Positions 42,983-47,413 of a stretch of DNA of 64,000 bases are shown in pieces. The position numbers and the translations under genes are program-made. The notes below the pieces were generated by a model. That model ran no database searches. It was not told the origin of the DNA and saw only the letters and a list, made by a program, of their open reading frames with translations. Source of the DNA: Bacteroidales bacterium (GTDB lineage: Bacteria; Bacteroidota; Bacteroidia; Bacteroidales; UBA932); assembly GCA_016290835.1 (NCBI GenBank), contig JAEEVG010000002.1, forward strand, positions 10,869 to 74,868. The letters are read 5' to 3'. How positions within the stretch are numbered: the stretch's first letter is position 1; the number at the start of each line of letters is the position of its first letter.

Positions 42983-43984
42983 TCAGGGCTGCCCGGGGGC
43001 GGTTTTGTTGATGGCCTCAGCGACCACCTCGGCACAACGCGCGGCGCCGATCGTCGAAGCGTGACCGTCATTGATCTGGTACACGTCCTTGACCCCGGCG
43101 GCGACGAGTTCACGGATATAGGGTGTCATCACGACGATCCGATCGTCCTTGGGCAACGGGTCCAGGATATGATTCTGGGGATGCTTGCCCTCGATCCAAG
43201 GTTCATAAGAGTCATATTTGTCGGCGCAGATGAGGAAAATCAGGTTAATCCCTTTCTCTTCCGAGAGACGGAACAGGCGGTCCAGGTTGTCAAGTGCCCG
43301 CGAGACATATTCGTCCGTCATCTGCAGGAATCCCATTTCCTCACGATAGACATACAATTCCCGGGAACGGGTCGGGTGGGAGAAACAGTCTTTGTTCAGG
43401 GTGAACTTGCGCACCGGATTGTTGTACCCGATCGAAAGCCGGACCCAGCGGGCCGTCTCCGAGAGGAGGTCCTTTTCCCATTTCCCGTGGTTGATCGGAC
43501 AAAGTTCGGCATAATCCGTGCTCTCGAAGTCCAGCCAGCAGAGCCGCCAGACATAATAGTGCTCCACGATCTCCACGACGACGGTCTGCCCCGCCCGGAA
43601 GGCCCCGGCATTGAGCAGGGACAGATAATCTTGGACGGGCATATAGAAACTGCTCCGCTCGAGGTTCCCGACCTTGAATCCGTGGTCCCTTCCCAGGAAA
43701 TGCGGGTAGGAATACAGGCCCTGGTTGCTGAACGAGTCGCCGAGGGTGATGACGGGGTAGTCCGGAATCTCGCGGACATCGTGGATCTGCGTCGCGCAGA
43801 GCGAATCCCGCTGCTCGTCAATCATATCGTTGACATTCAGCGAGCTGTATTCCTGACCATAGGGCACAAGGTTGAGCAGGCCCAGATCTCCGGACACGCG
43901 GGGCGCCACCTTCCAGTTGTAGTAGCAGACGAATGGAAGGATGAGGGCCACGACGGCGTAGAACTTGAGTGCGAACCGTTTCAA
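42983..43984 (-). CDS. SGNH-like (AlgJ/AlgX/DltD-type) extracytoplasmic acyltransferase
   Basis: Probable TTG start overlapping the MBOAT stop (TTGA); N-terminal TM; TLGDSFS and NDGH (DxH) motifs. Confidence 0.65.
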   Translation of the reverse strand: MKRFALKFYAVVALILPFVCYYNWKVAPRVSGDLGLLNLVPYGQEYSSLNVNDMIDEQRDSLCATQIHDVREIPDYPVITLGDSFSNQGLYSYPHFLGRDHGFKVGNLERSSFYMPVQDYLSLLNAGAFRAGQTVVVEIVEHYYVWRLCWLDFESTDYAELCPINHGKWEKDLLSETARWVRLSIGYNNPVRKFTLNKDCFSHPTRSRELYVYREEMGFLQMTDEYVSRALDNLDRLFRLSEEKGINLIFLICADKYDSYEPWIEGKHPQNHILDPLPKDDRIVVMTPYIRELVAAGVKDVYQINDGHASTIGAARCAEVVAEAINKTAPGQP

Positions 43985-45432
43985 AACTCGATATATAAAA
44001 AGGTCAGATTCTTTCCCCAGAGCATGATCAGCAGGCAGACCAGCACAAGATAGATCGCATAACGGACGGCCCAGTGATAGCATTTGAGCGGTACCAGCGG
44101 GAACTCCACCGTCCGGTTCCGCCACTCGAGAATCATCAGGGCGATGATCAGGACGGTCTTGGTCCGGAAGTCCGGATGCAGGAAGAAGAGATAGAAGCCC
44201 TTCAAGGTCTCCAGGTGGGCCATCCCGGCTAGATACTGCCAGGCCTGGGCGATGGAATCCGCCTTGAAGATGATCAGGCCCACCGTCACCAGCAGGAAGG
44301 TCAGCACCATCCCGCCGAAATCGGAGAGTTTCGGAAGGCCCAGCCAACCCGGCTTCAGCTTATGTTTCTTGGCGAACGCTCCGGACAGGATCAGCGGCAC
44401 GAACAGCAGGCCGTGGTAGAGCCCGAAGACACCGAAAGTCCAATTGGCCCCGTGCCAGAGGCCCACCAGGACCATATTGATGACGATCGCCAGGATCATT
44501 CCGAACTGGCCCCAGTCCCGGAAACGCACGTTCAGCGGCATGAATACGTAATCTGTCAGCCAGCCGGTCAGGGACATGTGCCAGCGCCGCCAATACTCGG
44601 CCACGTTAGTGGCGAAGAAAGGATAATTGAAGTTGCGCGCGACCCGGAATCCGAGCAGTTTCCCCGTGCCGATGGCCATGTCGGAATAGCCCGAGAAGTC
44701 GGTGTACATCTGGAAGGAGAACAGCAGGGCGGCCGTCAGCAGCATGCTTCCGGAGGCCCCGGATATATTCTCCCAGACCGGGTCGATCACAAGGGAGCAG
44801 CGGTCTGCGATCAGGACCTTCTTCGCCAGGCCCCAGAGGAACTGGCGTATGCCCTCGGCCGCCGTGTCATAGTCGAAAGAGCGCGTCTTGTGCAGCTGGC
44901 CCAGGAACTGCGGCCGGTCGATGGGCCCGGAGAGCAGGCAGGGGAAGAAAGCGACATAGGCTGCAAAAGCAATGAAATCCGTCTCCGGCTCCAACTTGCC
45001 CCGACGTATCTCCACCACATAGCTGATCAGCTTGAAGGTGATGAAACTGAGCCCCAGCGGCAGGATGATCTGGAAGGTATGCCAGTTGGTCTGCAGGCCC
45101 AGCGCCCCGAACAGGGAGGAGAAGGACTCGATGAAGAAATTGAAATACTTGAAATACAACAGCAGCCCGACTCCCAGCACCACGCCCAGCGCGCTGATCC
45201 AGGAAGCCCCCTTCTCTGACTTGCAATGCTTCAGCGCGAGTCCGATGCCGTAGAACAGGGCGGTCGCCCCGATCAGCAGCGGGAGCATCTTCAGACTGGC
45301 ATAACCATAGAAGAACCAGCTCGCGAGCAGGATCAGGATATTCTGGGCCTTCGTCTTCTCCCTGAGCGGAAACCAGTACAGGGTGAAGACGACGACAAAG
45401 AAAAGCAGGAAGGGGAGCGAGTTGAAACTCAT
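43981..45432 (-). CDS. MBOAT family O-acyltransferase (AlgI/DltB-like)
   Basis: LPLGLSFITF, FFPCLLSGPIDR, YTDFSGYSDMAIG, WRRWHMSL, GLWHGANWTF. Confidence 0.93.
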   Translation of the reverse strand: MSFNSLPFLLFFVVVFTLYWFPLREKTKAQNILILLASWFFYGYASLKMLPLLIGATALFYGIGLALKHCKSEKGASWISALGVVLGVGLLLYFKYFNFFIESFSSLFGALGLQTNWHTFQIILPLGLSFITFKLISYVVEIRRGKLEPETDFIAFAAYVAFFPCLLSGPIDRPQFLGQLHKTRSFDYDTAAEGIRQFLWGLAKKVLIADRCSLVIDPVWENISGASGSMLLTAALLFSFQMYTDFSGYSDMAIGTGKLLGFRVARNFNYPFFATNVAEYWRRWHMSLTGWLTDYVFMPLNVRFRDWGQFGMILAIVINMVLVGLWHGANWTFGVFGLYHGLLFVPLILSGAFAKKHKLKPGWLGLPKLSDFGGMVLTFLLVTVGLIIFKADSIAQAWQYLAGMAHLETLKGFYLFFLHPDFRTKTVLIIALMILEWRNRTVEFPLVPLKCYHWAVRYAIYLVLVCLLIMLWGKNLTFLYIEF

Positions 45433-45436
45433 CTCG

Positions 45437-45679: not shown

Positions 45680-45688
45680 GGGGTGAGC

Positions 45689-47413
45689 TTATTTGGAAAC
45701 AATGAAACAATCAAGGGGCGTGAACGTGTCCACGTCCAGCGTGAACAGCCGCTCCGGCGCCTCGGGATCCGGGGTGAAGCCGAGCCGCGGGTAGTGCTCT
45801 GCGACCATGGCATTTTTGGCCGTGGGCAGGTATTCGCCGACCAGGTGCCTGAACCCGTGCTCCCGGGCATATTCCACGAGGGTATTCAGCGTGAAGGCCT
45901 CCATTCCGCGTTTGAGCACCCGGCAGCTCATCAGCCAGGTATCGATGAAGAGCGTTCCGGCGTCGCGCTTCTCCAGGATGACCACGCAGATGAGGCCGTT
46001 GTCGCCGAACTTGTCGGAGAGCGTGAAGGAGAAGCAGGCGTACGACGGGTCTTCACCCAGGCGGCGGACCTCGTCTTCCGTATAGCGGACGGTCCGGAGG
46101 TTGAACTGGTTGCTCCGCTGGGAGAGCTGTGCGACGCGGGGGATGTTGAAGGCGTTGAACCCGCGCACCTCGCTGACCATCTCCAGGGACCGCAGGAAAT
46201 CGGCCTCGTTCGAGAAGGAGAGGGCGGAACTGGTACGCCGGGCCTCGACCTGATACTGCTTCGTCCTGTCCTTGTCGGCAGAAGAATAGGAGGCTGTCTC
46301 GAAAAGATTCAGCCCGTAGAGATACTCCAGGTAGTCGCCCGGGTCCTCGGGCAGTTCTGGAACACAGATCTCCGGGATGCCCTCCCGGACGATGTTGCGC
46401 TCGAAGGGATTGTCATCCAGGAATACCATCGAGTCAAAGCCGATATTGAGGATCTGACGGATGGTCCGGATGTTGTCGACCTTGTTCTCCCAGTTGGCGA
46501 TGAAGACGGCGATGTCGTCCAGGCGGAGAACCATCTCGGGATTCTTCTCGAAGGGCTCCCGGGCCTTGTCGTCATCGTTCTTGCTGCACACACAGATGAT
46601 GATGCCCCGGTCCTTGAGTTTGCGGACCCACTGCTGGAACTCCGAGAAAGCCTTGCCGATGCCCAGCCCGTGGCCGATCTGGATGTTCTCCCAGCCGTCA
46701 TCGCCCACGACGCCGCCCCAGAGGGTGTTGTCCAGGTCGAGAATGAGGCATTTCTTGAATGAACCCCGGATGGCGCAGACGATATCCAGCGTCCGGGACG
46801 CGACGTAAGGGAGGGCGTCCAGGCTGAGGAGCATCTCCGTGCTTACATAGACACTGCTGTCGAAACAGAAATCCCGCCCCAGTTTGGCCTGGAGTTCCGA
46901 GAGGTCGCAGATAAAGAGATTGGGGCACTCCTGGCTGAGGGTCATCAGGCCCAGGTTGAGTTTGCGGACCTGGTAGATGAAGGAGACCTCGACCCGGTTC
47001 TGGTAGCTGCCGAACACGCCGTCGCCAATCTCCGGATAATTGTAATAAATGATCTTCCCCGGGAAAGACCCGCATAGGGTGCGGACGAATTCCAACCGCT
47101 CGTCGCAGAGGGCCGTGCGCTGCTCCGCCTCCATCAGGCTATACTTTTCCAGCAGTTTGTGCGAGGACTGGAAGACGACGAGGTAATCAGCGCCGAAACG
47201 ATGCAGGTCGGAGGTTGGGTCCAGGACCTGCCGCTCCACTTGGTTGTACTCGCCTTCGAACAGTTCCAGGCAGATTCCCCGGGCGAGGGCCTCTCCCTGA
47301 ATGGCGGTGGCAAGGAACTGTGTAGCGCTGTCGCCGAGCAAAGCCAACCGGACCCGGGGATAATCCGGGTCCGGCTGCTTGAGCAGGCGCTTCAACTGTT
47401 GAAAAGTCCTCAT
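45689..47413 (-). CDS. FkbH-like HAD-IIIC protein with C-terminal GNAT-like domain
   Basis: ATG at 47413; DLDNTLWGG, CSKND, FLDDNPFER, SQRSNQFNL, DKFGDNG, LMSCRVLKRG. Confidence 0.88.
   Translation of the reverse strand: MRTFQQLKRLLKQPDPDYPRVRLALLGDSATQFLATAIQGEALARGICLELFEGEYNQVERQVLDPTSDLHRFGADYLVVFQSSHKLLEKYSLMEAEQRTALCDERLEFVRTLCGSFPGKIIYYNYPEIGDGVFGSYQNRVEVSFIYQVRKLNLGLMTLSQECPNLFICDLSELQAKLGRDFCFDSSVYVSTEMLLSLDALPYVASRTLDIVCAIRGSFKKCLILDLDNTLWGGVVGDDGWENIQIGHGLGIGKAFSEFQQWVRKLKDRGIIICVCSKNDDDKAREPFEKNPEMVLRLDDIAVFIANWENKVDNIRTIRQILNIGFDSMVFLDDNPFERNIVREGIPEICVPELPEDPGDYLEYLYGLNLFETASYSSADKDRTKQYQVEARRTSSALSFSNEADFLRSLEMVSEVRGFNAFNIPRVAQLSQRSNQFNLRTVRYTEDEVRRLGEDPSYACFSFTLSDKFGDNGLICVVILEKRDAGTLFIDTWLMSCRVLKRGMEAFTLNTLVEYAREHGFRHLVGEYLPTAKNAMVAEHYPRLGFTPDPEAPERLFTLDVDTFTPLDCFIVSK

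Follow-up and report, generated by a model that had tools for sequence, protein, structure and literature searches.

A predicted carrier-protein-fed MBOAT-SGNH acylation relay in a Bacteroidales polysaccharide locus

The window analysed here is a stretch of 64,000 nucleotides (nt) from a Bacteroidales bacterium (GenBank assembly GCA_016290835.1, contig JAEEVG010000002.1, positions 10,869 to 74,868), with a G+C content of ~58%. We focus on a cassette of four minus-strand genes that encodes an FkbH-family protein, an acyl carrier protein (ACP), and a DltB-like membrane-bound O-acyltransferase (MBOAT), as well as a predicted SGNH-fold transferase with a membrane anchor (Table 1). The cassette forms the end of a run of minus-strand genes spanning positions 42983-63605. 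The export genes wza and wzc, with gaps of 3 nt to their adjoining genes, head the transcription unit to which the cassette belongs, and the gene of a small HAD phosphatase is inserted between wzc and the FkbH gene with gaps of 3 nt and 16 nt. Reading from this HAD gene through FkbH, ACP, MBOAT, and SGNH, successive genes are 16, 9, and 4 nt apart and then overlap by 4 nt, which is consistent with one operon. The SGNH gene starts with a TTG codon at 43984 that overlaps the MBOAT stop codon within the string TTTTGA. A first-pass annotation made from the letters of the sequence had described four coupled genes directly after wza-wzc and a HAD gene; all four are present in this arrangement on the minus strand, and the assignments of wza, wzc, and HAD were confirmed.

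Table 1. Positions in the window of the cassette genes, their predicted functional residues, and the neighbouring genes of the transcription unit.
Feature	Position	Strand	Basis
FkbH-family protein, 574 aa; FkbH_N, HAD-IIIC phosphatase, and C-terminal Cys acyltransferase domains	45689-47413	minus	PF21211, 2e-83
FkbH, HAD motif I DLDNT (D226, D228, T230)	46724-46738	minus	≥90% conserved in 31 Bacteroidota FkbH domains
FkbH, S496-C497-R498, presumed acyl-enzyme Cys	45920-45928	minus	≥90% conserved in 31 domains; invariant in second alignment
Dedicated ACP, 80 aa	45437-45679	minus	PF00550, 37 bits (cut-off 20.8)
ACP, phosphopantetheine Ser S39	45563-45565	minus	
DltB-like MBOAT, 483 aa; H285 in RRWH	43981-45432	minus	PF03062, 53 bits (cut-off 27)
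MBOAT, catalytic H327 (WHG)	44452-44454	minus	
MBOAT, C-terminal hexapeptide FLYIEF (F478-F483, Y480), an FxYxxF motif	43984-44001	minus	sequence
Predicted membrane-anchored SGNH-fold transferase, 333 aa; transmembrane helix 4-22	42983-43984	minus	AlphaFold2, Foldseek, alignment
SGNH protein, GDS (82-84)	43733-43741	minus	
SGNH protein, H308	43061-43063	minus	
BT0820-family small HAD phosphatase, 131 aa	47430-47825	minus	NF046079, 178 bits (cut-off 165)
wzc	47829-50195	minus	Wzz, GNVR, and AAA_31 domains
wza	50199-50972	minus	Poly_export and SLBB domains
GT4 glycosyltransferase, precedes wza	50956-52326	minus	

The first protein of the cassette belongs to the FkbH family, scoring 296.6 bits against TIGR01686 (FkbH; cut-off 146.65) and 66.9 bits against TIGR01681 (cut-off 35.75). 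Its residues 2-379 match the Protein Data Bank entry 3SLR, BF1531, an 'uncharacterized protein', at an E-value of 2e-181. We aligned the window protein with 30 other Bacteroidota FkbH domains, some of which are fused in proteins of 1000-3000 residues, including fusions to polyketide synthases (PKS). The window protein keeps every position conserved at ≥90% in this alignment: D226, D228, T230, S277, K311, D333-D334, S496-C497-R498, and a further C-terminal set. By the enzymology of OzmB and FkbH, C497 is the presumed acyl-enzyme cysteine. A homologue encoded on a Streptomyces plasmid has the same full-length architecture, with 31% identity over 96% of the length, and is located in a set of genes for ketoacyl-ACP synthase III (KAS III), FkbH, ACP, and phosphopantetheinyl transferase (PPTase) that is typical of tetronate clusters. 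A Bacillus thuringiensis HAD-IIIC gene in a cluster of non-ribosomal peptide synthetase (NRPS) and PKS genes is ~30% identical to the HAD plus C-terminal part. FkbH enzymes have been assigned glyceryl-ACP formation in the tetronate and methoxymalonyl pathways (PMC7489565), and in NRPS modules FkbH 'stands in place of A domains' (PMC8949500; also PMC10143770). By analogy with these pathways, the FkbH of the cassette most likely forms glyceryl-S-ACP from 1,3-bisphosphoglycerate.

The second protein is a small ACP whose WDSLTH motif (D38-S39-L40) is conserved among the ACPs of related cassettes. Its score falls below the AcpP equivalog cut-off, and an AcpS-type PPTase is encoded in the genome.

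Among solved structures, the MBOAT is closest to DltB by both sequence and predicted fold. A phmmer search of Protein Data Bank sequences matched DltB (8jem and 6bug, E-value 1e-30) and no other protein, over residues 121-390. The AlphaFold2 model has a mean predicted local distance difference test (pLDDT) score of 82.8, and its top Foldseek match is DltB 6bug_C, with a template-modelling score of 0.72 (target-normalised) and ~23% identity. At the C-terminus, the protein reaches ~93 residues past the DltB alignment, forms extra helices in the model, and ends in ...NLTFLYIEF. The last residues, 471-483, follow the final helix as a low-pLDDT tail, a model feature that suggests flexibility. This end recalls a known acyl shuttle: Campylobacter jejuni PatA acetylates the invariant tyrosine of its C-terminal hexapeptide, Neisseria gonorrhoeae PatB accepts as donor the acetylated peptide FIYANF, which is the C-terminus of NgPatA, and PatA-type MBOATs bear their FxYxxF on two extra helices lacking in DltB, while in the Dlt pathway FxYxxF is located on a separate microprotein, DltX (PMC12148441). 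The ~93 additional residues ending in FxYxxF match this description of PatA-type MBOATs. Because the MBOAT carries its own tyrosine shuttle, a DltX would not be needed, and since all cassette junctions measure 16 nt or less, there is no space for a separate DltX gene. In a set of 24 cassette MBOATs, H285, H327, Y480, and F483 do not vary. FxYxxF ends 68 of the 73 MBOATs of related loci; in four of the others, Tyr replaces one Phe, and the fifth is truncated.

The last protein of the cassette has a predicted SGNH fold. Its AlphaFold2 model (pLDDT 82.1) retrieves, by Foldseek, 7bxd, N. gonorrhoeae PatB (7trr/7tlv/7tjb, probability 0.96-0.99), TesA, and GDSL lipases. G82-D83-S84 and H308 are invariant in 17 SGNH homologues, as is D300, which, judged from this conservation, may supply the acid of the triad; D306 is replaced by Asn in two distant homologues. 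Membership in the AlgX/AlgJ family was considered and rejected: PF16822 scores 26.3 bits against a threshold of 26.5 over 89 residues, and S84 precedes H308. In AlgX, the catalytic residues come in the opposite order, with DxH ahead of Ser. The sub-threshold score and the canonical SGNH order of Ser then His are the reasons why we call this protein SGNH-fold rather than AlgX. The first-pass annotation had listed catalytic motifs in each of the four proteins. The DLDNT motif is intact at residues 226-230 of FkbH, the ACP serine is S39 of DSL, and the MBOAT has both H327 and H285. For the GDS/DxH pair of the last protein, GDS and the histidine H308 hold up as invariant and the DxH aspartate, D306, does not.

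By analogy with characterised systems, we consider it fairly probable that the cassette encodes an MBOAT-SGNH relay that is fed by a carrier protein and esterifies the polysaccharide of the locus with a C3 hydroxy-acid derived from glycolysis, most likely glycerate. We infer both the identity of the acyl group, glyceroyl, and that of the acceptor, the locus polysaccharide. The relay would run as follows. Going by the enzyme family, FkbH would take 1,3-bisphosphoglycerate, its HAD domain (D226/D228) would remove the 3-phosphate, and the glyceryl group on C497 would be passed to the phosphopantetheine on S39 of the ACP, which the AcpS-type PPTase would have converted to the holo form. Glyceryl-ACP would then dock on the cytoplasmic face of the MBOAT, where H327 would transfer the acyl group to Y480 in the tail at the outer face, as in the DltC-DltB analogy. 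The flexible tail would bring the acyl-tyrosine to S84 of the anchored SGNH protein, as PatA-PatB and DltX-DltD would suggest. Finally, the SGNH protein would esterify a hydroxyl group on a sugar of the growing capsule or exopolysaccharide in the periplasm, before or during Wza/Wzc export.

The gene set recurs across many genomes. Scanning a single genome per species with the FkbH alignment yielded at least 80 loci at 51-71% identity; counts refer to the matches listed, and neighbours were counted within 6.5 kb of FkbH. An ACP gene is present near FkbH in 78 of the 80 loci, and ACP and MBOAT genes are both present in 66, so the arrangement is not due to chance. The first-pass annotation had put forward a survey of gene neighbourhoods as a check on its reading, and the joint occurrence of FkbH, ACP, and MBOAT in these 66 loci bears that reading out. 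A quick maximum-likelihood tree groups 51 of the 59 ACP-adjacent MBOATs in one clade, with 100% support in the SH-like approximate likelihood ratio test (SH-aLRT). The other MBOAT of the same genome, which has no ACP, is a long branch outside this clade. It is split over two contig ends, the end of C79 (L153 4190-8001) and the start of C78 (L154 2-1006). Two SGNH genes precede it, neither ACP nor FkbH is nearby, and the protein ends in FIYFQF; it is probably part of a conventional acyl-CoA-type MBOAT/SGNH system.

At least 8000 FkbH protein clusters match at E ≤1e-10, and the best 120 of these are at least 70% identical. FkbH scores above the cut-off in 26 of 401 sampled species genomes of the phylum and in 28 of 301 (~9%) of the order, and in neither of two genomes of the same genus; such a patchy distribution is as expected for an accessory part of variable capsule loci. 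The main carriers are Bacteroidales, Flavobacteriales (many of them Chryseobacterium), Sphingobacteriales, and Chitinophagales, and cultured carriers include species of Chryseobacterium, Pedobacter, and Flavobacterium. Single loci are labelled Treponema, Erysipelotrichaceae, Lachnospiraceae, Butyricicoccaceae, and Bacillota. In plasmid records, tblastn located the cassette in Alphaproteobacteria as well. On a 1.66-Mb replicon of Sinorhizobium meliloti (CP140944.1), genes for a VOC protein, an MBOAT ending in FLYQGF, a 409-residue protein, an ACP, and FkbH lie a few kb from rkpR and the capsule ABC-export genes (KPS), and a Rhodobacteraceae plasmid carries ACP, FkbH, an MBOAT ending in FIYFNF, a hypothetical protein, and VOC. 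The S. meliloti 409-residue protein (L156 7274-8503) is annotated as a TonB-dependent receptor; it has an N-terminal transmembrane segment and a GGS...DPGH pattern like that of DltD/SGNH partners, and by its sequence the annotation is probably wrong. In L064 (10352-11828), a metagenome contig, the cassette MBOAT was called as two open reading frames of 88 and 395 residues, the first of which fits the usual MBOAT N-terminus; the split is a frameshift or an assembly error. A second MBOAT gene is found near the cassette in L093, L104, L109, L112, L117, L120, L123, and L137 (Flavobacteriales and other Bacteroidota), and most of these second MBOATs form a well-supported clade of their own. One FkbH/ACP pair may feed two MBOATs in these loci; alternatively, the second MBOAT may belong to a separate acetylation system at the same place.

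Comparison of the recurring loci bears on the identity of the acyl group. Three main forms of the cassette were found: the plain form of the window (25 of 80), a form with an additional MaoC-type dehydratase and a short-chain dehydrogenase/reductase (SDR) (20 of 80), and a form with an additional VOC/Glyoxalase_4 protein (15 of 80). FkbH proteins 70-73% identical to that of the window occur in all three, so the loading chemistry is probably the same and the differences arise on the ACP. The added proteins best match (3R)-hydroxyacyl-ACP dehydratase, FabG-type 3-oxoacyl-ACP reductase, and methylmalonyl-CoA epimerase, at scores below the equivalog cut-offs. A 2,3-dihydroxypropanoyl thioester that is dehydrated and then reduced would become a lactyl thioester, and epimerisation at C2 would yield the opposite enantiomer; the added enzymes thus make sense if the starting unit is glyceryl-ACP. 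The same dehydration-reduction logic has reportedly been proposed for the loading module of BryA in bryostatin biosynthesis. Of the cassette components, the SGNH partner varies most. Elsewhere, it is a DltD/DUF1574-like or GDSL-like protein of ~300 residues, with GxS near the N-terminus and DxxH near the C-terminus, and the partner type of the window accompanies plain, VOC, and MaoC plus SDR cassettes alike (L070, L076, L080). This pattern fits a division of labour where the acyl group is set by the tailoring enzymes and the acceptor by the partner.

That related cassettes do tailor the acyl group also raises the possibility that the relay works as described with another acyl group, either because FkbH uses a different acyl phosphate or because an enzyme of the locus modifies glyceryl-ACP first. 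Two candidates for such a modification are at hand, an SDR encoded in the locus (59279-59974) and, upstream of the window, a KAS III and FabG-like pair (L155 13652-15393) that could act on ACP-bound substrates; the specificity of FkbH is itself unreadable. Yet the cassette of the window has no tailoring gene between FkbH and MBOAT, where the gaps are 9 nt or less, 25 of 80 loci are equally plain, and the SDR gene adjoins LicD, ~12 kb away. The glyceryl chemistry of FkbH is, moreover, consistent in every characterised PKS/NRPS case cited here. A different acyl group is thus rather unlikely, and we retain glycerate as the probable acyl group of the window cassette.

The genes around the cassette bear on the acceptor. 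Upstream of the GT4 gene that precedes wza, the window encodes GT2, GT4, and GT8 glycosyltransferases, a LicD protein, the SDR, a branching-enzyme-like protein, another GT4, and an AT3 acyltransferase. Outside the window, the locus runs on for at least 17 kb with three more AT3 genes, a pyruvyl transferase, a MatE-like flippase, a KAS III and FabG-like pair, a second LicD, and UDP-galactopyranose mutase. By its gene content, the whole is a polysaccharide locus that exceeds 40 kb and is rich in genes for decorating enzymes. PspC-domain and PadR genes, which are unrelated to the cassette and syntenic in a close relative, follow it downstream. The closest relative is a contig of a Bacteroidales metagenome-assembled genome (L062), in which the order GT4-GT4-wza-wzc-HAD-FkbH-ACP-MBOAT-SGNH-PspC-PadR is fully syntenic and an AT3 gene is inserted on the opposite strand between HAD and FkbH. 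The small HAD gene was considered as a possible part of the cassette and rejected; it is syntenic in L062 and not adjacent to FkbH in L002, L064, and L066. In these last three loci, the cassette lies mid-locus among genes for a flippase, glycosyltransferases, a NusG-like regulator, and sugar-nucleotide enzymes. A scan of positions 41500-48500 for sigma-70 promoters and terminators found nothing above shuffled expectation, a type of scan that does not cover Bacteroidota promoters.

Further features of the locus are recorded here in their own right. In total, it encodes four AT3 acyltransferases, a polysaccharide pyruvyl transferase, two LicD proteins, and a cytidylyltransferase; the AT3 and pyruvyl transferase genes lie at 53319-54194 in the window and at 1495-2514, 6302-7432, 9991-11007, and 11013-12326 in L155. 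The product of the locus is probably unusually heavily decorated. A triplet of GT2, Branch-family, and LicD genes occurs twice in the same order (window 56545-59270 and L155 7416-10009), which suggests a segmental duplication. The KAS III (FabH-like) and FabG-like SDR genes (G000:C44:86651-88392) adjoin the MatE-like flippase gene, and the pair may be involved in a further acyl decoration or act on the ACP of the cassette.

Two further alternatives concern the acceptor. MBOAT-SGNH pairs are known to serve peptidoglycan, alginate, cellulose, and teichoic acids (PMC12148441), and the acyl group here could go instead to another polymer of the envelope, for example lipopolysaccharide or lipooligosaccharide, glycoprotein O-glycans, or peptidoglycan. 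The position of the cassette at the very end of the locus, beside the unrelated PspC and PadR genes, and the differences in SGNH partner among cassettes would fit such an acceptor. However, the cassette shares a tight transcription unit with wza and wzc, lies mid-locus in the polysaccharide loci of other genomes, and in S. meliloti stands beside rkpR and KPS export genes; in addition, the ACP-less MBOAT of this genome, with its two SGNH genes, could serve another polymer. We regard this alternative as improbable. The cassette might also make or modify a small molecule or lipid, that is, a glycerate-primed secondary metabolite or an MBOAT-acylated lipid, with no glycan involved. FkbH-ACP pairs are classically parts of PKS and NRPS systems and eukaryotic MBOATs acylate lipids, but the cassette has no ketosynthase, condensation, or thioesterase gene, and its MBOAT groups with DltB and bears the FxYxxF shuttle that hands an acyl group to an extracytoplasmic SGNH transferase. 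The context is, furthermore, consistently that of a polysaccharide locus, and we judge this last alternative highly improbable. Our low ratings of these two alternatives and of a different acyl group rest on three points: the cassette shares a tight operon with wza and wzc, it lies mid-locus elsewhere, and it has no chain-extending enzyme.

Several observations weigh against the relay as we propose it, that is, transfer of glycerate to the polysaccharide of the locus. The substrate specificity of FkbH cannot be read from its sequence. The ACP scores 16.9 bits against the DltC equivalog NF003464 (cut-off 68), and generic ACP models score higher; the MBOAT scores 189.6 bits against the DltB model TIGR04091 (cut-off 375), or half of what that model demands. 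The SGNH family of the window type is small, with 24 protein clusters, and sits just below the AlgX threshold. Fourteen of the 80 loci have no MBOAT in range, most of them with an ACP and two of them cut by a contig end, which implies that the FkbH-ACP pair also feeds other acceptors. The first-pass annotation had proposed a Dlt-like relay in which FkbH replaces the adenylating ligase. All computable predictions of that proposal hold: the FkbH residues, the co-occurrence in 66 of 80 loci, the DltB and PatB folds, the location in polysaccharide loci, and the tailoring variants.

The proposed relay can be compared with four known systems. Membership of the cassette proteins in DltA, DltB, and DltC themselves was rejected, as there is no AMP-binding domain and the MBOAT and ACP score below the equivalog cut-offs. 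In both the Dlt system and the cassette, a dedicated small carrier protein carries the acyl group, a DltB-like MBOAT (DltB being the nearest solved relative by sequence and structure) is followed by a membrane-anchored SGNH/DltD-type transferase on the outside, and the intermediates, by analogy, are likely to be an acyl-tyrosine and then an acyl-serine. Unlike Dlt, the four genes include no DltA ligase, and the loader would be FkbH, acting from an acyl phosphate; FxYxxF is fused to the MBOAT in place of a DltX microprotein; the group transferred would be an uncharged hydroxy-acid rather than D-alanine; and the host is Gram-negative, with capsule rather than teichoic acids as the probable target.

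With PatA/PatB, and by the cited authors' extension with AlgI/AlgJ/AlgX, cellulose, and secondary cell wall polysaccharide O-acetylation, the cassette shares the extra MBOAT helices and the FxYxxF end (FIYANF in N. gonorrhoeae PatA, FLYIEF here), and an SGNH-fold partner with an N-terminal anchor, PatB being among its top fold matches. Non-Dlt MBOAT-SGNH systems use acetyl-CoA as donor and have no carrier protein (PMC12148441), whereas the cassette operon encodes an ACP and a loader, and cassette MBOATs are grouped in a clade that excludes the ACP-less MBOAT of the genome. Since an ACP and a loader are combined with an MBOAT that ends in FxYxxF, the system joins a Dlt-type donor to a PatA-type fused shuttle. 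The FkbH/ACP glycerate pairs of PKS and NRPS pathways (tetronates, methoxymalonyl-ACP, zwittermicin, vioprolide, aeruginosins) have in common with the cassette the enzyme family, the invariant residues, and a stand-alone adjoining ACP, and in NRPS systems FkbH likewise replaces an adenylation domain. In contrast to these pairs, the ACP product here would go to a membrane O-acyltransferase and not to a ketosynthase or condensation domain. Gellan of Sphingomonas elodea provides the chemical precedent, a bacterial exopolysaccharide in which a sugar carries glycerate as an O-ester (PMC9104527); the acid is L-glycerate in gellan, whereas PKS FkbH products derive from D-1,3-bisphosphoglycerate.

The searched literature, Creative Commons papers of PubMed Central (PMC) and preprints of bioRxiv, contains no account of a polysaccharide pathway in which FkbH and an ACP feed an MBOAT, and no paper that pairs FkbH with Bacteroid*; a report in a subscription journal is possible. 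As far as sequence allows us to say, the cassette would represent MBOAT-SGNH acylation that is fed in the Dlt manner, uses a PatA-type shuttle and a PKS-type loader, and is widespread. Beyond the window, our judgement is evenly balanced on a broader proposal, according to which the cassette belongs to an extensive, as yet undescribed class of modular ACP-fed MBOAT-SGNH systems. Here, FkbH would divert 1,3-bisphosphoglycerate from glycolysis, tailoring on the ACP would set the ester (glyceroyl with no tailoring enzyme, lactyl with dehydratase and reductase, the other enantiomer with the VOC epimerase), and interchangeable SGNH partners would set the acceptor sugar.

The current picture of MBOAT-SGNH systems has two cases: Dlt, with a carrier and a separate DltX, and the rest, with acyl-CoA and a fused tyrosine tail. 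The cassette would be a third, hybrid case, in which a carrier is combined with a fused tail and the donor comes straight from glycolysis instead of the amino-acid or CoA pool. A family protein of Bacteroides fragilis, BF1531, already has a solved yet uncharacterised structure. The cassette would add hydroxy-acid esters, which are readily lost on alkaline work-up, to the known decorations of capsules, and such esters could affect antigenicity, recognition of gut commensals by phages and the immune system, and polymer rheology. If the proposal is true, the class would be a general route to varied capsule chemistry in Bacteroidota, gut species included, in Alphaproteobacteria, and in some Firmicutes and Spirochaetes, and it might also explain glycerate esters such as that of gellan.

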